From NCBI GenBank assembly GCA_963662615.2, contig CAXXSR010000001.1, positions 1,088,001 to 1,152,000 of the forward strand: a stretch of DNA of 64,000 nucleotides, read 5' to 3'. The stretch comes from Dehalococcoidia bacterium. GTDB taxonomy: Bacteria; Chloroflexota; Dehalococcoidia; Bin125. The position numbers and the translations under genes were made by a program. Below are positions 4,037-37,280 of the stretch, piece by piece (positions within the stretch are counted from its first letter, which is position 1; each line of letters begins with the position of its first letter). The notes beneath the pieces were generated by a model that was not told the DNA's origin, made no database searches, and worked only from the letters and a program-made list of their open reading frames with translations.

Positions 4037-5386
4037 TTACAGATTGCCCGTCACCTCTTTGACCCCCTCCTCCACGATGGTGAGGATCGCGTCCACCTCC
4101 TCCGCCGTCGCCACCAGCGGTGGCGCCAGCACGAAGGAGTCCCCGCGAATGCGCGTGATCAGACCCCGACGTTGGCAGGCGTTCCGCAGCCGCACGCCCA
4201 TGCGCATCTCCTCGTCGAAGGGGACGTCGTTCTCGGGATCTTGCAGTAGGTCCAGGCCGCACATGAAGCCCAGCCCCCGCACATTGCCCACGTAGCGGTT
4301 CTCGCCGAGCAGCATCAGCCCGTTCAGAAGCTGCTCGCCCCGTGCCGCAGCGTTCTCCACCAGCCCCTCCTCTTCGATGATGGCGAGGTTGCGCAGCGCC
4401 ACCGCCGCCGCAACGGCGTGACCCGAGTTCGTATAGCCGTGCATGAACTTGACGCTGGGGTCGGCGCCGGTGATCGTCTCGAACACCTCCCGCGACCACA
4501 CCGACGCCCCCAGCGGCATGTACGCGCTCGTGATCGCCTTCGACACCGACATCAGGTCCGGCAGCACCCCAAAGTGCTCCAGCGCGAACCACCTCCCCGT
4601 GCGGCCGAAGCCCGTGATCACTTCGTCCGCGATCAGGAGCACCTCGTAGCGGTCGCAGACCTCGCGTAGCTGACGGAAGTAATCCGGCGGCGGCGGGTGG
4701 ACGCCACCGCCGCCCTGCACCGGCTCCGCGATCACCGCCGCCACCGTCTCCGGCCCCTCTCGCTCGATCGTCTCCGCAATGTTGTCAACATTGTTGTTGC
4801 CGGGATCAATGCGCGCCCCGCCGCTCGGCATCGGCTCCACGCTCGCCGCCGGCACGATCTCGTGTACCCGCGGTTCAAAATTGGGGTAATACATGGACAT
4901 CCCCGTCGCCGACATGCAGGCCAGGGTCGTCCCGTGGTACCCCTCCACCCGGCTGATCACCTTGACCTTCCCCGGCCGCCCCTTCATTGCCCAGTAGAAA
5001 CGCGCCGTCTTAAAGCTGGTCTCGTTTGAATCCGCGCCCGAGGTGCCGAAAAACACCGCCTGCATGTTGTCGTAGGCCAGCTCCACCAGCTTGGCCGCCA
5101 GCTCAATGGCCGGCTCGTTGCTGGAGCCCACGTAACTGCTGTTGAAGGCCAGCCGCTCCATCTGCCGCGCGGCGGCCTCCGCCAGCTCTCGGCGCCCGTG
5201 CCCCACCGCCACGTTCCACAGCGAGGAGAGGCCGTCAATGTAGCGCTGCCCGTCGTGCCCGTAGAGGTAGATCCCTTCCCCTCGCTCGTACAGCAGCGGC
5301 TCCTGGTGATCGCTGGGATGGGAGAGCGGATGCACCCAGTGGGCGAGATCTTTCCGCACCAGCTCCCGGTACCGTGCATCGTCCAT
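4037..5386 (-). CDS. Class III PLP-dependent aminotransferase (omega-amino acid/diamine type)
   Basis: YIDGLSSLWNVAVGHG, GYHG, AEPVQGGGG, LIADEVITGFGRTG and the PLP lysine in SKAITS. Confidence 0.92.
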   Translation of the reverse strand: MDDARYRELVRKDLAHWVHPLSHPSDHQEPLLYERGEGIYLYGHDGQRYIDGLSSLWNVAVGHGRRELAEAAARQMERLAFNSSYVGSSNEPAIELAAKLVELAYDNMQAVFFGTSGADSNETSFKTARFYWAMKGRPGKVKVISRVEGYHGTTLACMSATGMSMYYPNFEPRVHEIVPAASVEPMPSGGARIDPGNNNVDNIAETIEREGPETVAAVIAEPVQGGGGVHPPPPDYFRQLREVCDRYEVLLIADEVITGFGRTGRWFALEHFGVLPDLMSVSKAITSAYMPLGASVWSREVFETITGADPSVKFMHGYTNSGHAVAAAVALRNLAIIEEEGLVENAAARGEQLLNGLMLLGENRYVGNVRGLGFMCGLDLLQDPENDVPFDEEMRMGVRLRNACQRRGLITRIRGDSFVLAPPLVATAEEVDAILTIVEEGVKEVTGNL

Positions 5387-5422
5387 GCTGAGTCCTTCCT
5401 TGCGATCCACCCTCGACGGCGA

Positions 5423-7024
5423 TCAGCCCTGCCGCCCCGCCAGCAGCTCCCGCGCGACCGCCCGATCATCCCACGGCTCCACCGTCTCGCCAACGATGAG
5501 CGTCTGCTCCGCGCCCTTCCCGGCGATCAGCACGTAATCCCCCGCCGAGGCCAGCATGAACGCCCGCCCGATTGCCCGTCGGCGGTCGGGCTCCTCCTCG
5601 AAATCGGCGCCCGCCTGGCGTCCTGCCGCCTCCATCGCCTTCGCGATCTCCCGCACGATCGCCGCCGGATCCTCCGAGCGCGGATTCTCACTGGTGAGCA
5701 CCGCGTAGTCGGCGAACTCCGCCGCCGCCGCTCCCATCCCGCCGCGCCGGCCCGGGTCGCGCTCCCCCGCGCAGCCGAAGACAACGATCAGCCGGCCCTG
5801 CACCAGCGCTCTCACCTCCGCCAACACCACGCCAAACGCCGCCGCCGTCGCGGCCGCATCCACCACCACCGTGAACGGTTGCCCCGCCTCGATCCGCTCC
5901 ATCCGGCCCGGCACCTCGCGCAGTTGGCCAATCCCCCGCGCCATCGCCTCCGGCCCCACACCCAGCGCCCAGCAAGCGCCCGCCGCCGACAGCGCATTGC
6001 GCACGTTGAAGCGCCCCGGCAGCGCCAGCCGCGCCGTGGCGGCGCCCGCCCGCGTCGCGATCCGGAACTCGGAGCGCTCCACCTCCAGCACCACGTCCCC
6101 CGCCGATACGTCCAGCTCGCCGCCATTGACGCCACCTCGGCCGTTGAAACCCCCGCCGTCGAAGCCAACGCGGACCATTGCGGCCGAGGTGGCGGCCCCC
6201 ACGGCTTCGGCATACGGGTCGTCGGCATGGACCACGCCGCGCTTCGGGGTCCCCTTCGCCACGGACGTATCCAGCGCCTGGAACAGGCGCAGCTTTGCCG
6301 CCAGGTACTCCTCGCGCGTCTTGTGGAAATCCAGATGGTCGTCGCTGAGGCCGGTAAAGACGCCCACGTCGTACTCGCAACCGTCCAGACGGTGCAGCGC
6401 CAGCCCGTGCGACGTCGACTCGATCACCGCGTACGTTACCCCCGCCGCCACCATCTCCGCCAGCAGCGACTGCACCTGCGGCGCTTCTGGGCTGCTCTGC
6501 GTGATCGTGTTCATGCGCCACTCGTCGCCCACCTTGAACTGCACGCCACCGATGATCCCGGTGCGCCGGCCCGCCGCCTCCAATATTGACGATGTCAAGT
6601 AGCAGGTCGTGCTCTTGCCGTCCGTGCCCGTCACCCCCACCACGGTGAGACGGCGCGCCGGGAAGCCGTGGAACGCCGCCGACAGGGCCGCCAGCGCGAC
6701 GCGCGTATCGGCGACCTCCACGACGCTGACGTCGTCGCGCCCGAGCAACGGTTCCCACTGCGCTCGACGGTCGCTCTGCACCACGACGGCCTGGGCCCCG
6801 GCCGCCACGACCGCGTCCAAGAAGCTGTGCCCGTCCACGTGAAAGCCCGGCACGGCCACGAAACAGGCGCCGGCTTGCAGGTCACGGGAATCCTGACTGA
6901 TCTGGGTCACGGCGCCACCACTGGCGACACCGCGGGCGCCACCGCGGGCGACACCGCCCTGGGGGCCGTGCTGCGCCTTGACGGGCGTGGCCTCCAGCAG
7001 GGCGGCAAGAGTACGATCCGTCAC
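5423..7024 (-). CDS. murE: MurE-like UDP-MurNAc-peptide ligase (divergent C-terminal domain)
   Basis: DSR, GVTGTDGKSTT P-loop, ESTSHGL, DHLDFH, VPGRME, FGCAGERD, SENPR and AGKG motifs. Confidence 0.85.
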   Translation of the reverse strand: MTDRTLAALLEATPVKAQHGPQGGVARGGARGVASGGAVTQISQDSRDLQAGACFVAVPGFHVDGHSFLDAVVAAGAQAVVVQSDRRAQWEPLLGRDDVSVVEVADTRVALAALSAAFHGFPARRLTVVGVTGTDGKSTTCYLTSSILEAAGRRTGIIGGVQFKVGDEWRMNTITQSSPEAPQVQSLLAEMVAAGVTYAVIESTSHGLALHRLDGCEYDVGVFTGLSDDHLDFHKTREEYLAAKLRLFQALDTSVAKGTPKRGVVHADDPYAEAVGAATSAAMVRVGFDGGGFNGRGGVNGGELDVSAGDVVLEVERSEFRIATRAGAATARLALPGRFNVRNALSAAGACWALGVGPEAMARGIGQLREVPGRMERIEAGQPFTVVVDAAATAAAFGVVLAEVRALVQGRLIVVFGCAGERDPGRRGGMGAAAAEFADYAVLTSENPRSEDPAAIVREIAKAMEAAGRQAGADFEEEPDRRRAIGRAFMLASAGDYVLIAGKGAEQTLIVGETVEPWDDRAVARELLAGRQG

Positions 7025-7112
7025 GCGCCGCTCCCCTCACCAGAGCAGCATCGCGCCCCCTGCAGGGCGTCGCAACGGCGGGGGTGGCACGGCGCGACGG
7101 CACTCGAGGTCG

Positions 7113-7519
7113 TGGCGGCCAGGCGACCTGTAAGCCGAGTTCTGTATCCCTCCCGCCGTGCCCGCCCGCCGTTGCCGGCGCGCGGGAGCAGGAAGGACGG
7201 TGGCCATCTCTCTACGACGACGGTTACCCGCCGCCTCCAGCGACCTACCCGAGGGCGGAGTGAGGCGCTCCCTGGCCCTCCTATTTGGTCTTGCTCCGGG
7301 CGGGGCTTGCCCAGCCGGCCGGTCACCCGACCGCTGGTGCGCTCTTACCGCACCATTTCACCCTTACCCTCCCCGAATAGGAAGGGCGGTATGTTTCTGT
7401 GGCGCTATCCGTGAGGTCGCCCTCCCTGGGAGTTACCCAGCGCCCTGCCTCAATGGAGCTCGGACTTTCCTCGACCCTTCCTCGCAGGAAGGGCCGCGAC
7501 CACCCGGTCGCCTGGCCGC
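7113..7519 (-). ncRNA. rnpB: RNase P RNA (bacterial type A)
   Basis: GAGGAAAGTCCGAGCTCC, AGCGCCACAGAAA, GGTAAGAGCGCACC, GGAGCAAG and ACAGAACTCGGCTTA conserved regions. P1 helix GCGGCCAGGCGACC/GGTCGCCTGGCCGC; TAGGAT -10 6 nt upstream. Confidence 0.97.
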
Positions 7520-7557
7520 ACGTCGATCCTACTACGTCGCGCCCACAGCTCCGGCAG

Positions 7558-7971
7558 CTACAGCACTTGCGACAGCCGTCCGTCCAGCGCCGCGTTCGCC
7601 AGCGCGTCGGCGCGCGCGTTCTCGGCGCGCGGCACATGCTGGACGCTGAAGCCCTCCAGCCGCTCAATGAGCGCGGAGAGTCGCGCGAAGAGCGGCTTCA
7701 ACTTCGCGTTGCGAACGCGGTAGCGCCCCTCCAACTGTCGCACCAGCAGCTCGGAATCCAAATTTAATTCCAGGGCGGTTGCGCCCAGGGCCAGCGCCGC
7801 CTCAACGGCGGCGATGGCGCCTCGGTACTCAGCGACGTTATTGGTGGCGCGGCCAATGGCCTCCGCCAGAGCCCGCAGCTCCCCGCCGTTCTCGTCCAGC
7901 ACCGACACCCCGTAGGCGGCCGGTCCGGGATTGCCGCGGGCGGCGCCGTCGGCGTAGGCGATCAGGCGCAC
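7558..7971 (-). CDS. rnhA: Ribonuclease HI (RNase_HI_like)
   Basis: YADGAARGNPG, TNNVAEY, DSELLVRQ and ENARADALAN motifs. Confidence 0.93.
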   Translation of the reverse strand: MRLIAYADGAARGNPGPAAYGVSVLDENGGELRALAEAIGRATNNVAEYRGAIAAVEAALALGATALELNLDSELLVRQLEGRYRVRNAKLKPLFARLSALIERLEGFSVQHVPRAENARADALANAALDGRLSQVL

Positions 7972-8014
7972 GGTGCACTGCCTCGCGCTGCGCCGCCCGC
8001 GCTGCCGCGTGGGA

Positions 8015-9442
8015 TCATGGGCGCAGGATCGTGCGCACGCGATCGTCGTCCACCAGCACCTTCTCCACCAGGTCGCGCACCAGCGCCTGCCGCTCCTCGA
8101 ACGGCAAGCGTCCCCACTCACTGCGCACCCGTTCGCGCTGCTGTTCCTGGTGGCGCCGGCGATCGCTGTCGGAGGCCTGCGCCTCGGCCCGATGAGCCAG
8201 CGTCGCCAGATCCGCCTCGGCCAGCAGATACTCTCCCGCGACCTCGTGCGCCGTCTCCCGAAGCTGCTCCGGCCGCAGCCGGCCGCCGGCGGCGAGCCCC
8301 AAGCTCCCGCTCAACTGCCGGTCCAGCGACCGCATCCGGCTCCGCACCCGCGCTTCCGCCATGGCCGTCTCCGCCGCTACCGCCTTCGAATCGCCGGCGC
8401 TCACCACCGTCGATTGCAGCGCCCCGCTCGCTTCACCCGTCAGGTGCCGCACCACCTCGGCCTCCAGGTCATCGGCCCGCTGCGTGTGGTACGCCCCCAC
8501 CGACTGATTCGTACGCGCCTCGCTCTGGTAGTAGCGATAGGTGCTCTTCACCACCTCCCCATCTCGACGCGTCCACTGCTGCCGTCGTGTGACGCCGATC
8601 ATCCGCGTGCCGCCGTCATTGCAGTGGACCAAGCCCGACAACAGAAAGTGGCTGGGGCGCGCCGGCGCCGCCGGCCGGCGGCGGCCCTGCATCCGCTCCT
8701 CCACGGCGTCGAAGTCGCTCACCGACACGATCGCGGTGTGGTTGCTGGGCACCCGTACCCCAAAGCGCGCATAGGTTCCCAGATAGACGCGATTGCGCAG
8801 CAGGTCGCGAATGGTGACCATGCTCCAGTTGCCGTCCCGGCGCGTGCGGTAGCCCTCTTCATTCAGACGCTTGGCGATCCGGCGGATGCCGAGCCCTTCC
8901 CGCAGGTAGAGGCGAAAGATATGGCGCAGCAGCGCCGCCTCGTCCTCTACGATCGCCAAACGCCCGTCCGCTCCGGCCCGATAGCCGTACGGCGGTCGCC
9001 CCAACACCTGCCCTTGGACTGCGAGTCGCCGCATCGCCTCCCGCACCCGCTCGCCCACCCCCGAAGACGCCCGTTGCGCCGACCACAGTTTCAGCATCCG
9101 CGCCTCGTCCAGCGCCCCTTCTTCCATGGAGATGACCCGCGCCCCGCTGGCCGTGATCTGAAAGTAGGCCCGCGCCGCCTCCGTAGCGCCCGCGCCCAGC
9201 CGCTCGAACGACGCCGCCACCACCACCAGGAACCCCTTCTCCGGCCTGCTGAGGTACTCCAGCAACTGCCGCAGACCCGGACGTTCCCCGTCGCCGCTGG
9301 GATCGAGGAATGCCGCCGCCGGCTCGTAGCCGTTCGCATCGCAGTAGGCCAGGAAATCGTCGTTTTGCTGCGACAGAGAAGCGCCGCGTGGCGCGTCGGC
9401 TCGCCTTCCCGGAAATTCGCTGAAGTAGCCAACGGCCCGCAT
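8015..9442 (-). CDS. Large serine recombinase-family protein, apparently catalytically dead
   Basis: Resolvase-like N-terminus (SLSQQ...YC, ERPGL), recombinase DNA-binding domain (GRPPYGY, EAALLRHIF, IAKRLN, W...IRDLLRNRVYLG, H.AIVS), degenerate Zn ribbon (FLLSGLVHC) and coiled coil. Confidence 0.88.
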   Translation of the reverse strand: MRAVGYFSEFPGRRADAPRGASLSQQNDDFLAYCDANGYEPAAAFLDPSGDGERPGLRQLLEYLSRPEKGFLVVVAASFERLGAGATEAARAYFQITASGARVISMEEGALDEARMLKLWSAQRASSGVGERVREAMRRLAVQGQVLGRPPYGYRAGADGRLAIVEDEAALLRHIFRLYLREGLGIRRIAKRLNEEGYRTRRDGNWSMVTIRDLLRNRVYLGTYARFGVRVPSNHTAIVSVSDFDAVEERMQGRRRPAAPARPSHFLLSGLVHCNDGGTRMIGVTRRQQWTRRDGEVVKSTYRYYQSEARTNQSVGAYHTQRADDLEAEVVRHLTGEASGALQSTVVSAGDSKAVAAETAMAEARVRSRMRSLDRQLSGSLGLAAGGRLRPEQLRETAHEVAGEYLLAEADLATLAHRAEAQASDSDRRRHQEQQRERVRSEWGRLPFEERQALVRDLVEKVLVDDDRVRTILRP

Positions 9443-9463
9443 GCTGCTCCTAGGGCAGTGCTC

Positions 9464-10162
9464 TTACCGCAAGAAGACGATCCGTCCACAGGCAGGACAG
9501 TTCACCACCTCGGCCCCGCGCCGCGCCCGCGTCAGCATCATGGTCGGCAGCGTCAGCCGACAGGCGCCACAGACGCCGCCCTCCGCCACGGCCACGACCA
9601 GCGGATTGCGGCTGCGGTGGTCGTCGTAGACGGCCAAGTCCCCCTCTTTCATCGAGGCCCGCTGCTCGCCCGCTTCCACATCGATCGAATCGGATTGCTC
9701 GACCAGCTCGCGGCGTTGCGTCTCCAGCTCCGACTCCCGCTCGCTCCAGTCGGCCTCCACACGCTTCAACAGCCGCACCAGGTAATCGCGCGCCTCCCGG
9801 TCCAGCTCCTCCCGCTCCAGCTGGGCCAGCCCGCTCTCTTCCTGCGCCTTCAGCCCACGCCGCAGAGCAAATATCTCCTCCTGCAGGCTGCGCAGCTCGC
9901 GAGATTCGGTGATGGCGCCGCTGTAGAGCTTTTCCTCTTCCGCCGTGATCTTCAGCCGTGACGCCTCGGCCTCCGCTTCTTTCTTCTTGCGATCGCCGGT
10001 CGCCTCCTTGAGCAGCCCCTTCTGAGCGTCCACTTCGCCACGCAGCGCATCCAGAAACGGCGGCCGGCCCAACAACGCCTCCACCTCTTTGAGCCGCTTC
10101 TTGATCGTGTCTAACCGCCCATCCACCTCCTGGAGGGTGATCATCTCCGCGATGTTGTCCAC
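9464..10162 (-). CDS. Coiled-coil C4-type zinc-ribbon protein (DUF164/CT398-like)
   Basis: LQEVD N-terminus, long coiled coil, KLYSG, CGAC...CPACGRI; GGAGA SD before the GTG. Confidence 0.88.
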   Translation of the reverse strand: MDNIAEMITLQEVDGRLDTIKKRLKEVEALLGRPPFLDALRGEVDAQKGLLKEATGDRKKKEAEAEASRLKITAEEEKLYSGAITESRELRSLQEEIFALRRGLKAQEESGLAQLEREELDREARDYLVRLLKRVEADWSERESELETQRRELVEQSDSIDVEAGEQRASMKEGDLAVYDDHRSRNPLVVAVAEGGVCGACRLTLPTMMLTRARRGAEVVNCPACGRIVFLR

Positions 10163-10216
10163 GCGATTCTCCGCTTCGATTAGGTAACCACAGTCTACGA
10201 ACCGCGACTCGCGCCG

Positions 10217-10288
10217 CGCAAGCACCACCGCGGGCACCACCGCAAGCACCACCGCAAGCACCACCGCAAGCACCACCGCGGGCGCCGC
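10217..10288. repeat. 12-nt tandem array (CGCRRGCACCAC x6) in a divergent promoter region
   Basis: Direct reading; followed by a duplicated CCTCTGGTTGC that abuts TAGGAT. Confidence 0.85.
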
Positions 10289-10327
10289 TTCCTCTGGTTG
10301 CAAGCCTCTGGTTGCTAGGATACTGCC

Positions 10328-10873
10328 GTGACCCGGCAACGTCCGCGCCCGGCCGACAGTGAGGCCTCCCTCTCGTTCAATGTCTCCACCCTGCTCGCCG
10401 AGCCCATCGGCAGCCAGCGGCGCCACACCATCGCCGAGGCGCCGTTCACCTTCAACGGCTTCGTCACGCGCGTGGCGGGAACCGTCGATTTCCTTCGCAC
10501 CGACGGCTCCATCATGGTCACCGCGGACCTGTCGCTGCACATCGAGGAGATCTGCGGCCGCTGCCTCCGACCCTTCGTAACGCCCTTCACCGTTCGCTTC
10601 AGCGAGGAGTTCTGGCCTGCGTTCGACCCTCTCACGCGCGAGCGCGTGCACGTCCCCGAAGAGCGCGAAGGCTTTCCCATCAGCGACGGGCACCTCGACC
10701 TTGGCGAAGCCATCCGCCAATATGTGGAGATGGCGCGCTCCATGCGGCCGCTCTGCGGGCGGCCGGCCTGCCCCGCGGTCGCGGAGCCGGTGCCCCTCGA
10801 CCGCCGCGACGAGGCGGCCGTCGACAGTCGCTGGGCCGCGCTCCAAACCCTGCGCGACCACCTCAACGAGTGA
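10328..10873 (+). CDS. yceD: DUF177/YceD family protein
   Basis: CGRCL, HLDLGEAIRQ and DSRWAAL motifs; lies upstream of rpmF; leaderless start. Confidence 0.9.
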   Translation: MTRQRPRPADSEASLSFNVSTLLAEPIGSQRRHTIAEAPFTFNGFVTRVAGTVDFLRTDGSIMVTADLSLHIEEICGRCLRPFVTPFTVRFSEEFWPAFDPLTRERVHVPEEREGFPISDGHLDLGEAIRQYVEMARSMRPLCGRPACPAVAEPVPLDRRDEAAVDSRWAALQTLRDHLNE

Positions 10874-10905
10874 TCGGCGCGCGCGGCCTGCGAGAGGACT
10901 AGGCT

Positions 10906-11091
10906 GTGGCCCCGCTACCGAAACGCAAATATGCCAAAACCCGACAACGGCTGCGGCGGCACCACCTTGTGCAACGCCGCGCCACCTTGACCACCTGTCC
11001 CACCTGCCACTCCACCACGGTCGCGCATCAGGTCTGCTACGAGTGCGGCCGCTACCGGGGCCGGCAAGTGCTGGAAGTCGGCGAGGAGTAG
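10906..11091 (+). CDS. rpmF: 50S ribosomal protein L32
   Basis: MAPLPKRK...RRHH...CPTC...HQVCYECGRYRGRQV. Confidence 0.95.
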   Translation: MAPLPKRKYAKTRQRLRRHHLVQRRATLTTCPTCHSTTVAHQVCYECGRYRGRQVLEVGEE

Positions 11092-11093
11092 GC

Positions 11094-12044
11094 ATGGGCG
11101 CCGCGCTTACCGCCCCGGCCTGGCTCTTCCCAGGACAGGGCGCCCAGAAGGTGGGTATGGGCCGCGACCTTTACGAAGCGATCCCGCAAGCACGCGAGAT
11201 CTTCGAGCGCGCCGACGCCGCCCTCGACCGCCCCCTCTCCGAGATCATCTTCAACGGCCCGGAAGAGACGCTGGTGCAGACGGTCAACGCCCAGCCCGCC
11301 ATCTTTACCACCAGCCTCGCCTGCCTGGCCGGCGCGCGGGCGCTCAACGCCGATCTTCGCGCGCCCCCCGCCTTCGTCGCCGGCCACAGCCTGGGCGAAT
11401 ACACCGCCCTGGTCGCCGCCGGCTCCCTCGCAATCGAAGACGGCGTCCGCCTGGTCCAGCGGCGCGGCCGCCTCATGCAACGGGCCGGCGAAGAGCAGCC
11501 CGGCACGCTCGCCGCCATCTTGGGCCTGGGCGAAAATGAGATCGAAGCCGTCTGCCTGGAGACCGGCGCCGAGATCTGCAACGTCAACGCCCCCACCCAG
11601 ATCGTCGTGGGCGGCAGCCACCCCGCCGTCGCCCGCGCCATGGACCTCGCCCGGGCCCGCGGCGCCCGCCGCACCCTTCCCCTCCGGGTCAGCGCCGCCT
11701 TCCACTCCTCCCTCATGCAGCCGGCCGCCGACACCATGAAGCGCGAGCTGGAGCGGGTGTCCTTCCAGCAACCCCAAGTGCCCCTGGTCGCCAACGTCAC
11801 CGGCGCCGTCATCAATTCCAGCGACGCCGTCCGCACCGAACTTGCCCAGCAAGTGGGCCGCGCCGTCCGCTGGCGCGAGTCCGTCGAGTTCATGCTCGCC
11901 GCCGGCGTCCGCACTTTCGTCGAGATCGGCCCCGGCACCGCGCTCACCAGCCTGGTCAAGGCCGCCGCCAAGGACCTCAAGCTCACGCTCACGCTCACGC
12001 TGCACAACTTCAACACCATCGACTCGATCCGCGGCGGCCGCTAG
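11094..12044 (+). CDS. fabD: Malonyl-CoA:ACP transacylase
   Basis: FPGQGAQ, GHSLGEY, SAAFHS and EIGPG motifs. Confidence 0.95.
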   Translation: MGAALTAPAWLFPGQGAQKVGMGRDLYEAIPQAREIFERADAALDRPLSEIIFNGPEETLVQTVNAQPAIFTTSLACLAGARALNADLRAPPAFVAGHSLGEYTALVAAGSLAIEDGVRLVQRRGRLMQRAGEEQPGTLAAILGLGENEIEAVCLETGAEICNVNAPTQIVVGGSHPAVARAMDLARARGARRTLPLRVSAAFHSSLMQPAADTMKRELERVSFQQPQVPLVANVTGAVINSSDAVRTELAQQVGRAVRWRESVEFMLAAGVRTFVEIGPGTALTSLVKAAAKDLKLTLTLTLHNFNTIDSIRGGR

Positions 12045-12061
12045 CCGCCCAAGGGCGGACC

Positions 12062-12538
12062 GTGGCCAAGATCTACAAGCGAGCCCGCGTTCGCGCCTTC
12101 CGCGCCCTCTTCGAGGCGGAGTTCGGCCGCTGTGCCGCTCTGGATGCCCTCCGCCGCGACCTCGCCGGCCCCGAGGGCAGCCACGCCACCGTCTCCAACG
12201 CCGACCGTGCCTACGCCGAGGCCCTGGTCCAGGGCCTGCAGCAACACCGTGAGCAGCTGGACCGCATCATTGCGGAAACGGCGCCCCGCTGGCCGCTGGA
12301 CCAGATCGCCGTCGTGGACCTCACCATCCTCCGCATTGCGCTCTACGAGCTCCTGGTCAATAATGCCGCCGTCCCCACCGCGGCCGTGATCAACGAAGCC
12401 GTGGAGCTGGCCAAGACCTACGGCGCCGACGCGAGCTCCCGCTTTGTCAACGGCGTCCTGGGAACTGTCAGCCGCGACCGCCTGGCCGCGCCGGTCGCTC
12501 GGAAACCGGAATCGGAGGAACCGCATGGCTCTCTATGA
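12062..12538 (+). CDS. nusB: Transcription antitermination factor NusB
   Basis: [28 protein letters not shown] and FVNGVLG motifs. Confidence 0.95.
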
Positions 12539-12782
12539 GCGGATCCGCGGGATTATCGAGAACCAGTTGGGCGTCGACGCGGAGCAGGTCACGCTCCAAG
12601 CCTCGTTCGTCGACGATCTCGGCGCCGACTCGCTCGACCTTGTCGAACTGATCATGGCCTTCGAGGACGAGTTCAAAGACGAGGTGAAGGAGCTGGAGAT
12701 TACCGACGAAGAGGCCGAAGGCCTCGCTACCGTCCAGGCCGCCATCGATTTCCTCGTCAGCAAGGGCGTGCCCAAGGACTGA
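12525..12782 (+). CDS. acpP: Acyl carrier protein
   Basis: [17 protein letters not shown]; GGAGG SD. Confidence 0.95.
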
Positions 12783-12797
12783 TCGTCGCCCCGGACG

Positions 12798-12885
12798 GCG
12801 CCACTGTCTTCGCACCACTGTCTTGGCGCCACCCTCTTCGCGCCACGGTCTTCGCGCGCAACGGTCTTCGGCCCACTGTCTTCGC
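12798..12885. repeat. Degenerate 14-nt tandem array (GCGCCACTGTCTTC consensus x6)
   Basis: Direct reading between acpP and tatB. Confidence 0.85.
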
Positions 12886-12959
12886 GGCCCACAGCGGCGC
12901 GCTAAAAGATCGGATACGCTGGAGCGGGCGCGCGTCCGCGCAGCGCACGCGGGAGCGGC

Positions 12960-13487
12960 ATGGAACTCTTCGGCATCGGCATCCTTGAGATCCTGCTCAT
13001 CTTCGTGCTCTTCGCCATCATCTTCGGTCCTCACCGCCTCCCCGAGATCGCCGCACAGTTCGGTCGCGCCGTCCGCGTCCTGCGCGCCTACGCCCGCGAC
13101 TTCCGCGACGAATACCTCACCGACATTGAAGAGATGAAGGATGAGGTGCTCGATCTGCGCCAGGACCTGCAGGCCACCGACGCGGAATTGCGCCGCGAGG
13201 TCCAAGACGTGGATCAGGAACTCCGCATGGCCGTGCGCGAAGCGGAGCGCGACGCCGAGAGCGTCGTGCGCGAGACCAAGGAGGGGGCGCTGGGCAAGGA
13301 GTCGCCCCCATCACCGGCTGGCGGGAACGCGTCTCGCCAAGAGCAAGCAATCCCGCGCCGGCGCTTCGCCAGGCGCCGCGCGCGGACGAGCGCGCCTCCC
13401 TCCTCCCGCCCGACCAACGTCATCTCCATCGCCGCGCGCCGGCCCGCCCGCGGGGCGCCCTCTCGCGGGGTGAAGGATCGCCCCTAA
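12960..13487 (+). CDS. tatB: Twin-arginine translocase TatB/TatA family
   Basis: FGIGILEILLI...IIFGPHRLPE, amphipathic helix; upstream of tatC. Confidence 0.88.
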   Translation: MELFGIGILEILLIFVLFAIIFGPHRLPEIAAQFGRAVRVLRAYARDFRDEYLTDIEEMKDEVLDLRQDLQATDAELRREVQDVDQELRMAVREAERDAESVVRETKEGALGKESPPSPAGGNASRQEQAIPRRRFARRRARTSAPPSSRPTNVISIAARRPARGAPSRGVKDRP

Positions 13488-37053: not shown

Positions 37054-37280
37054 CCGCTCATTCGGAGCTTGTCGAACGGCGCCGACATCGTCCCGATCAT
37101 CGACCCCCGGCGCGAGCGGTCACGAACGCCGCGCTGGCCCAGACGAGTCGCGAGCGCGGGCGAAAAAGTCGAAGGGCGAACGGCTCTCCACCCCCTCTCC
37201 ATCGCTCTGTGATGGAGAGGGGGGCGGGGGGTGAGGTCCCCTCGTTCGTCCTGAGCTTGCCGAAGGGGCGAACGGCGAAC
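37054..37280 (+). repeat. Composite REP-like element, copy 4, with an extra CCCCCTCTCC...GGAGAGGGGG hairpin module
   Basis: Same modules as the other copies plus a palindrome at about 37191-37223. Confidence 0.8.

Follow-up and report, generated by a model that had tools for sequence, protein, structure and literature searches.

What does a gene with the build of a phage integrase do in a run of housekeeping genes when the residues with which such enzymes cut DNA are gone? The question is raised by a large serine recombinase (LSR)-like gene, here called LSRL, at positions 8015 to 9442 of the window, a stretch of 64,000 nucleotides (nt) from a Dehalococcoidia bacterium (assembly GCA_963662615.2, contig CAXXSR010000001.1, positions 1,088,001 to 1,152,000). 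We favor, with moderate confidence, the explanation that LSRL is an exapted, catalytically dead large serine integrase serving as a sequence-specific DNA binder, probably with the DUF164 protein encoded just upstream. Homology and fold, loss of catalytic residues, purifying selection, vertical inheritance, and fixed synteny were all observed, and the evolutionary finding is well supported. Dimerization, DNA binding, partnership with DUF164, and a cellular role are inferred.

The open reading frame (ORF) runs from an ATG start through 475 amino acids to a stop codon, and its translation contains MRAVGYFSEFPG, FERLGAG, VHCNDGG, YYQSEARTNQSVGAYH, GRPPYGY, IAKRLN, and RNRVYLG. In Pfam, the full PF07508 Recombinase profile matched amino acids 166 to 254 (9.5e-22, 77.6 bits), and the PF00239 Resolvase profile matched amino acids 20 to 145 through its positions 13 to 144 (2.9e-9; 37.6 bits versus a cutoff of 23.3 bits). 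Since the latter match begins only at profile position 13, the nucleophile end of the profile is unmatched in LSRL. The PF13408 Zn_ribbon_recom profile scored 24.3 bits, below its 25.3-bit cutoff. NCBIfam had no family for LSRL; all four of its matches (XisF, CcrC, CcrB, and CcrA) lay far under the cutoffs, the best being XisF (5.4e-17; 61.9 versus 375 bits) and CcrC (3.6e-15; 55.5 versus 900 bits). The AlphaFold2 (AF2) model, built from a 57-sequence alignment, had a mean predicted local distance difference test value of 83.9 and comprised, from N to C terminus, a beta-alpha N-terminal domain, a long helix (113 to 142), a helical recombinase domain, a beta-rich domain (272 to 322), a helical hairpin (352 to 445), and two closing strands. 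Foldseek matched this model in the PDB to the integrases of SPbeta (2e-21), Bxb1 (8.5e-17), and PhiC31 (6e-16) and to the C-terminal domain of an A118-type integrase (4e-15); with an E value of 2e-21 to SPbeta integrase, the LSR architecture is far beyond chance. Weaker matches of the N-terminal part were to small resolvases, such as gamma-delta resolvase (1gdt, 1.2e-5), and to the TP901-1 catalytic domain (3bvp, 3.1e-5). The ORF list, Pfam, the AF2 model, and Foldseek thus all agree with the intact 475-residue ORF of full LSR architecture that the initial annotation had described. The parts of the gene are as follows.

8015-9442, reverse strand: LSRL, intact ORF of 475 amino acids plus stop, ATG start; Pfam Resolvase and Recombinase matches and a subthreshold zinc ribbon match.
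9098-9442, reverse strand: degenerate resolvase-type catalytic domain, amino acids 1 to 115; S8 in place of the catalytic Arg, F10 in place of the Ser nucleophile, and ERLGA for DRLxR (profile alignment to SPbeta integrase).
8993-9097, reverse strand: long helix (alpha-E equivalent) and GRPPYGY linker, amino acids 116 to 150; AF2 helix 113 to 142, aligning to the helix and linker of SPbeta integrase.
8657-8992, reverse strand: recombinase domain, the first DNA-binding domain, amino acids 151 to 262; PF07508, aligning to chains of the A118 integrase C-terminal-domain/DNA complexes 4kis and 6dnw.
8438-8656, reverse strand: zinc-ribbon-type domain, amino acids 263 to 335; one of four Cys left (C274), PF13408 at 24.3 bits.
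8123-8437, reverse strand: helical hairpin, equivalent of the LSR coiled-coil motif, amino acids 336 to 440; AF2 helices 352 to 385 and 391 to 445, aligning to the A118 coiled-coil region.
8018-8122, reverse strand: C-terminal helix and two strands closing the zinc-ribbon domain, amino acids 441 to 475; AF2 strands 459 to 464 and 469 to 473, aligning to the A118 C terminus.

Catalytic residues have been lost from this scaffold. Alignment of the family profile with SPbeta integrase set positions 8 and 10 of the family against the catalytic Arg and Ser of that enzyme, and the family motif x-(R/H/N)-L-G-x fell opposite its R-L-S-R. The window protein reads Y6-F-S8-E-F10, so that Ser stands where the first Arg would be and Phe replaces the nucleophile. 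R81, the equivalent of R68, is present, and A84 occupies the R71 equivalent, giving ERLGA where DRLxR is expected (R8, R68, and R71 follow the numbering of gamma-delta resolvase). Of the four zinc-ligand Cys residues, only C274 is left; the AF2 strands at 272 to 307 and 320 to 322 still predict a zinc-ribbon-type fold. The initial annotation had read the nucleophile and Arg motifs as lost (YFSEFPG and ERLGA) and the zinc ribbon as keeping a single Cys, and the alignment bore out both statements. Ser8, which had been named beforehand as a possible nucleophile, aligned to the Arg and not to the nucleophile.

We compared these positions in 291 distinct sequences, made up of matches of 400 to 560 amino acids from wide protein searches together with loci L024 to L103; the set was picked by similarity to the query, and closer active relatives may lie outside it. 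At position 8, 114 sequences had Arg, 111 had Ser, and 18 had Thr; at position 10, only 30 had Ser. Arg was found at position 81 (R68 equivalent) in 46 of the 291 and at position 84 (R71 equivalent) in 18. The full tetrad occurred in just three sequences, which are canonical LSRs with 29 to 32% identity and form the tree outgroup. In the FastTree tree rooted on these three, none of the remaining 288 sequences had the tetrad, the first Arg was common among groups that branch off earlier and had disappeared from the window's clade, and the four-Cys zinc ribbon, kept in about half of the family, was the ancestral state, which the derived clade containing the window had lost. The family is thus a natural series of stepwise active-site decay, with the R68 and R71 equivalents gone nearly everywhere, the first Arg and the Ser gone in some lineages, and the zinc ligands gone in one derived clade. 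Residues equivalent to the second shell of the active site (Y6, Q26, D47, and R54) stay conserved and may hold the DNA backbone. As a control, the genome's three other LSR genes retained YxRVS and DRxxR. These genes, L002, L003, and L004 (G000 C1:1640782-1645050, 938811-942725, and 1681132-1684770), include one match that holds a TAG; they probably mark mobile elements, because two of them have codon indices about 2.3 standard deviations under the genome mean.

LSRL is an old, fixed, vertically inherited single-copy gene under purifying selection. It is present once in its own genome, where the three other LSR genes are 25 to 29% identical to it, and each of the 24 other genomes examined from the window's family carried one strong full-length orthologue (47 to 66% identity). 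Of 401 genomes sampled evenly across the class, 216 had a match, the unpublished genome G259 among them, as did 177 of 300 high-quality genomes (E ≤ 1e-30). Whole families either had the gene or lacked it (for example, 25 of 25, 25 of 25, and 23 of 25 genomes versus 0 of 11, 0 of 12, and 0 of 11), nearly always with one match per genome. Only 7 of 301 genomes in a sample of the phylum matched, all 7 in the window's class, and the 80 LSRL loci collected were all in metagenome-assembled genomes labeled Dehalococcoidia, Chloroflexota, or Chloroflexia. Of 8000 proteins scored in the wide protein searches, 1244 reached E ≤ 1e-10; among sequences clustered at 50% identity, 142 cluster representatives reached E ≤ 1e-30. 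The reading frame was intact in nearly all of the 216 genomes, down to 34% identity.

The ratio of nonsynonymous to synonymous substitution rates (dN/dS; Nei-Gojobori, 12 pairs) was 0.07 to 0.30 overall, where a value near 1 had been named beforehand as the sign of decay. By domain, it was 0.08 to 0.31 for the dead N-terminal domain, 0.04 to 0.26 for the recombinase domain, 0.03 to 0.36 for the zinc-ribbon domain, and 0.05 to 0.45 for the coiled coil; one nearly identical pair was uninformative, and a domain range of <0.37 is stated for the informative pairs. Across 47 loci, the pairwise identity of LSRL followed that of murE (Spearman rho, 0.90) and of DUF164 (rho, 0.92), correlations that are descriptive and not a test because related genomes are non-independent, and mean pairwise identity was 0.53 for LSRL and 0.56 for murE. 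The GC content at third codon positions was 0.84 and the codon index was 0.666, in line with the neighboring genes and within one standard deviation (0.064) of the genome mean of 0.705; the codon indices of two canonical LSR paralogues were 0.55 to 0.56, which looks foreign. Conservation is concentrated in the DNA-binding part. Columns conserved in at least 90% of the 288 sequences numbered 45 in total, with 23 of 112 in the recombinase domain, 15 of 73 in the zinc-ribbon domain, 3 of 115 in the N-terminal domain, and 1 of 105 in the coiled coil; G144, G148, and P151 to Y154 were at least 90% conserved. In distant lineages, Pfam did not detect the resolvase domain, and the two DNA-binding domains were still found at 1e-18 to 1e-22 and 1e-11 to 1e-14. 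The native codon style and well-preserved DNA-binding domain first noted at this locus were thereby substantiated, and the synteny and phylogeny expected of an exapted gene were observed: a single copy whose divergence tracks murE, variable catalytic positions, and conserved DNA-binding domains. In one family, f6, the orthologues (L107:4693-6126 and L109:4883-6139) have an unrelated N terminus, no resolvase-domain signal, and another gene context, and one of them begins with a Gly/Ala/Met/Thr-rich repeat.

The neighborhood of LSRL is that of a housekeeping operon.

9464-10165, reverse strand: DUF164/CT398-family gene (coiled-coil hairpin and C4 zinc ribbon), 21 nt upstream of LSRL; PF02591 (Zn_ribbon_9) 5.9e-11 and PF24481 (CT398_CC) 2.3e-6.
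7558-7971, reverse strand: RNase HI gene, 43 nt downstream of LSRL; RVT_3 4.7e-19 and RNase_H 2.3e-9; start set by alignment with relatives.
7115-7515, reverse strand: rnpB (RNase P RNA, class A), 42 nt past the RNase HI stop; Rfam RF00010, 294.8 bits, full length.
10166-10327, no strand assigned: divergent intergenic region between the DUF164 operon and DUF177-rpmF, with a promoter-like stretch and a leader motif common to close relatives.

The 21- and 43-nt spacings are those the initial annotation had given. Other ORFs between window positions 4037 and 13487 were recognized by eye only (aminotransferase, murE, DUF177, L32, NusB-like, and acyl carrier protein-like). The initial annotation's statement that phage genes, integrative and conjugative element (ICE) genes, and attachment-site (att)-like repeats are lacking also stood: by eye, no phage or ICE gene was recognized among the ORFs of 4037 to 13487, and no direct or inverted repeat pair was found bracketing LSRL alone. 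Tandem arrays of a 12-nt unit, in the same orientation at 10222 to 10281 and 6912 to 6962, do flank the whole rnpB-rnhA-LSRL-DUF164 block. Five units lie in the DUF164/DUF177 intergenic region and two to four looser units lie just upstream of the conserved part of murE, where the alignments of relatives start near residue 39; elsewhere in the 2.66-Mb genome, the unit gave one loose two-unit match only. As att-like remnants these arrays were rejected, the array in the DUF164/DUF177 intergenic region being absent from close relatives.

The tightest and specific link of LSRL is to DUF164. In all 80 loci, a DUF164 gene lay directly upstream on the same strand; the median gap between match ends was 14 nt, and at many loci only a few nucleotides separate stop and start. 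Of 15 loci taken from families farther removed, 12 had DUF164 adjoining LSRL. RNase HI was directly downstream in 69 of the 80 loci, usually followed by rnpB and murE, and was missing from the site in the other 11; in the closest relative, one of these 11, rnpB comes straight after LSRL. Four genomes of the class that lack LSRL had an empty site, arranged as DUF164-rnhA-rnpB in one, DUF164-rnpB in two, and DUF164 alone in one, and the available text of the 2011 HP0958 paper reports rnhA and the RNase P RNA gene adjoining DUF164 homologues in other phyla (PMC3372290). Because the DUF164-rnhA-rnpB cluster occurs without LSRL, RNase HI is primarily, and was earlier, a neighbor of DUF164. As for DUF164 itself, a 2026 preprint, as far as its text was available, predicts that the homologues ML1638 and CT398 bind RNA polymerase beta-prime and places DUF164 across beta-prime, with the coiled coil reaching the sigma-binding region. 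A complex prediction for LSRL and DUF164 from full-length alignments (A2 and A3) gave a score of 0.01 and a mark of 0.32, which weighs neither way on binding.

These counts bear on an alternative in which LSRL would act on RNA or RNA-DNA hybrids, rather than duplex DNA, in the service of RNase HI and RNase P RNA, for example by handling R-loops or maturing the operon transcript that ends in rnpB. The regular order of RNase HI and then rnpB behind LSRL in those 69 loci speaks for it, as does the 42-nt distance from the RNase HI stop (window 7516 to 7557), which makes cotranscription of rnpB likely; RNase P RNA may be excised from that operon's transcript. Binding motifs that are near invariant across the class would also suit a highly conserved nucleic acid target. 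We nevertheless find this alternative doubtful: the cluster predates LSRL and is reported from other phyla, RNase HI is absent from 11 of the 80 sites, and the LSRL domains match the duplex-DNA-binding domains of solved integrase-DNA complexes. The initial annotation had suggested that LSRL acts with RNase HI at R-loops, and this idea was not sustained, given that the cluster exists without LSRL and that RNase HI is missing in 11 loci where DUF164 is present in all 80. The central part of that reading held up well, namely, a mobile-element integrase that lost catalysis and became fixed and vertically inherited under purifying selection; the RNase HI/R-loop link proved weaker than the DUF164 link, and DNA binding, synapsis, and any regulatory role are inferred, because no target site was found.

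On the explanation we favor, that of a dead integrase kept as a DNA binder, an LSR gene, presumably brought in by a prophage or an integrative element, would have inserted between the DUF164 gene and rnhA-rnpB in the ancestor of a large Dehalococcoidia clade. The catalytic Arg residues would have been lost first, and the Ser nucleophile and first Arg later, in many lineages, with the gene subsequently passed on vertically as a single-copy core gene. Selection would have retained the noncatalytic machinery, i.e., the long dimerization helix, the GRPPYGY linker, the recombinase and zinc-ribbon-type domains, and the coiled-coil arm. Because the parts of an integrase that find and hold DNA are what is kept, LSRL is read as a dimer that would bind, and leave uncut, a specific DNA site of roughly palindromic form; once bound, it might act as a regulator, a roadblock, or a DNA-bridging factor. 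Its partner in expression, and probably in function, would be the DUF164/CT398 protein encoded upstream. That the dead domain is under purifying selection would suit a role in structure or dimerization.

Several observations weigh against this reading. The three remaining loci from distant families belong to f38 and f6, which keep LSRL and in whose genomes (94 to 100% complete) DUF164 was found nowhere by alignment profile or PF24481, with one match below threshold; since these families retain LSRL without a detected DUF164, the LSRL-DUF164 partnership is not obligatory. A sub-lineage of 14 sequences with a GYFRES N terminus keeps the Tyr, the first Arg, and the Ser and lacks the two later Arg residues, and some residual chemistry may persist there, to judge from these residues. 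Among 35 genomes with a match, two copies of LSRL looked damaged, one in a relative (L013, genome G001) with an internal TAG after 249 amino acids and one split over three frames (G030:C1:1956954-1958395), for which assembly error and real pseudogene are both possible. RNA contigs (three RNA runs and one other run were used, of 24 listed) reached only the conserved rnpB core, mostly from other organisms, and are silent on LSRL transcription. Finally, no DNA target site for LSRL was found in any search made. Comparison of the DUF177/DUF164 intergenic region over the loci gave promoter-like hexamers and a short leader motif within clades and no conserved dyad by eye, and a genome-wide search for repeated palindromes with 9-nt arms spaced 8 to 44 nt apart gave a repetitive extragenic palindromic (REP)-like family and simple GC repeats, none of them tied to LSRL.

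The intergenic searches also turned up features of their own. A short leader motif stands just before the DUF164 start at window positions 10166 to 10200, and at the same place in loci L024 to L034, and ends in a GGAG ribosome-binding site. The motif is conserved throughout the window's clade, as is a -10-like GTATACT; in other clades, a TATAAT box is present and the leader is roughly 100 nt or longer. A consensus scan of positions 6800 to 10500 returned no promoters and three weak terminator-like hairpins, versus 1.3 expected. The REP-like palindromic element has 30 copies in the genome, one of them in the window at 37193 to 37221 (G000 C1:1125193), with arms of about 10 to 12 nt and a loop of 9 to 15 nt inside longer conserved flanks.

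A second alternative is that LSRL is a decoy against mobile elements, a dead integrase that would occupy an attachment site or poison incoming active integrases through its dimer helix or coiled coil and so confer immunity. It draws on the retained dimer helix and coiled-coil arm, which mediate subunit and synaptic contacts in active LSRs, and on the three canonical LSR genes with foreign-looking codon use in the same genome. Defense genes usually turn over rapidly, whereas LSRL is a single copy at a locus fixed across the clade and evolves at a housekeeping-like rate (mean identity of 0.53 versus 0.56 for murE). The coiled-coil region, which would have to track its partners, is the least conserved part and yet bears no sign of positive selection (dN/dS, 0.05 to 0.45). 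PADLOC defense models gave zero matches for the three proteins scanned, LSRL among them. We consider such a decoy unlikely.

It is very unlikely that LSRL is a still-active recombinase using noncanonical chemistry, with Ser8, Thr8, or another nucleophile, at an unrecognized chromosomal site. The presence of Ser or Thr at position 8 in 129 of the 291 sequences, the YxRxS retained in the GYFRES sub-lineage, and purifying selection on the N-terminal domain speak for it. However, with the canonical Arg at position 8 in 114 of the 291, Ser8 is no conserved nucleophile; the R68 and R71 equivalents are gone from nearly the whole family, the GYFRES group included; Pfam does not detect the catalytic domain in distant members; and LSRL alone is not enclosed by repeats that would mark a segment able to invert or be excised. 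That LSRL is a decaying, functionless relic of an old insertion, as the damaged copies in G001 (internal TAG) and G030 (three frames) would suggest if they are not assembly errors, is scarcely credible, being contradicted by its distribution, with an intact frame in nearly all of 216 genomes to 34% identity, by a dN/dS of 0.07 to 0.30, and by the 45 columns at least 90% conserved across 288 sequences.

How an exapted, noncutting integrase would relate to known systems depends on what is compared. With the phage LSRs (SPbeta SprA/YokA, 9dxh and 9y66; Bxb1, 9iu2; PhiC31, 9tep; and Listeria A118-type, 4kis and 6dnw), LSRL shares the fold and a five-part architecture consisting of a resolvase-type N-terminal domain, a long helix, a recombinase domain, a zinc-ribbon-type domain into which a coiled coil is inserted, and closing strands at the C terminus. 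Unlike them, LSRL lacks the Ser nucleophile, the first Arg, and the R71 equivalent, keeps one of four zinc Cys residues, and lies outside any mobile element, without att-like repeats, as a single-copy, vertically inherited gene in a housekeeping operon. LSRL belongs to the LSR superfamily by homology and fold; judged by its residues and setting, it is no serine integrase in the functional sense, because it lacks the nucleophile, the complete Arg cluster, three of the four zinc ligands, and a mobile-element context.

Host-recruited LSRs, such as XisF of Anabaena, SpoIVCA-type recombinases, and the SCCmec Ccr proteins, are homologues that serve a host or a fixed element, as LSRL appears to do. 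They keep catalysis and excise or invert DNA, whereas LSRL lacks the catalytic residues and scores far under their NCBIfam cutoffs. By analogy, LSRL would work most like the noncatalytic uses of serine recombinases. Resolvase dimers sit at res accessory sites, and Tn3/gamma-delta resolvase represses its own operon. The working model is the same, a dimer on a dyad site in an architectural or repressor role without cutting. However, resolvases in those roles are small, have a single helix-turn-helix, and stay active at another site; LSRL has lost catalysis and has the two-domain DNA-binding part typical of LSRs. To our knowledge, the host-recruited serine integrases described so far (invertases and developmental excisionases) all remain active enzymes.

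The evolutionary route resembles that of TldR, nuclease-dead transposon proteins derived from TnpB that, according to the available text on them, became transcription factors (PMC13418256). In both, a mobile-element enzyme lost catalysis and kept target recognition for a regulatory role, which in LSRL is presumed. TldR differs in belonging to another protein family and in its RNA-guided recognition, where that of LSRL would be protein based. A 2022 review of recruited mobile-element genes mentions, in its available text, only active serine recombinases (PMC8987985). In the literature open to our search, as far as its text was available and with subscription journals and supplements outside it, we found no published description of a catalytically dead, domesticated or exapted, host-fixed LSR, nor of such a family in Dehalococcoidia.

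If true, LSRL would be the first catalytically dead, host-fixed LSR, as far as the literature searched shows. Serine integrases are known as mobile-element enzymes and as genome-engineering tools, and here the scaffold has been kept across a class after catalysis was lost, which implies a useful noncatalytic activity of the module formed by the recombinase domain, the zinc-ribbon domain, and the coiled coil. In practice, annotation pipelines label such genes "recombinase family protein" and so would raise a false mobile-element flag in hundreds of Dehalococcoidia genomes. LSRL also opens a new way into the poorly understood DUF164/CT398 family, a member of which is encoded directly ahead of it in all 80 loci. 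Tentatively, it could be a sequence-specific DNA anchor of the core genome, acting with RNA-polymerase-associated DUF164/CT398 and representing a new class of transcription or nucleoid factor; built on a two-domain DNA-recognition module and a coiled-coil arm, such an anchor may bridge two DNA sites and leave them uncut.

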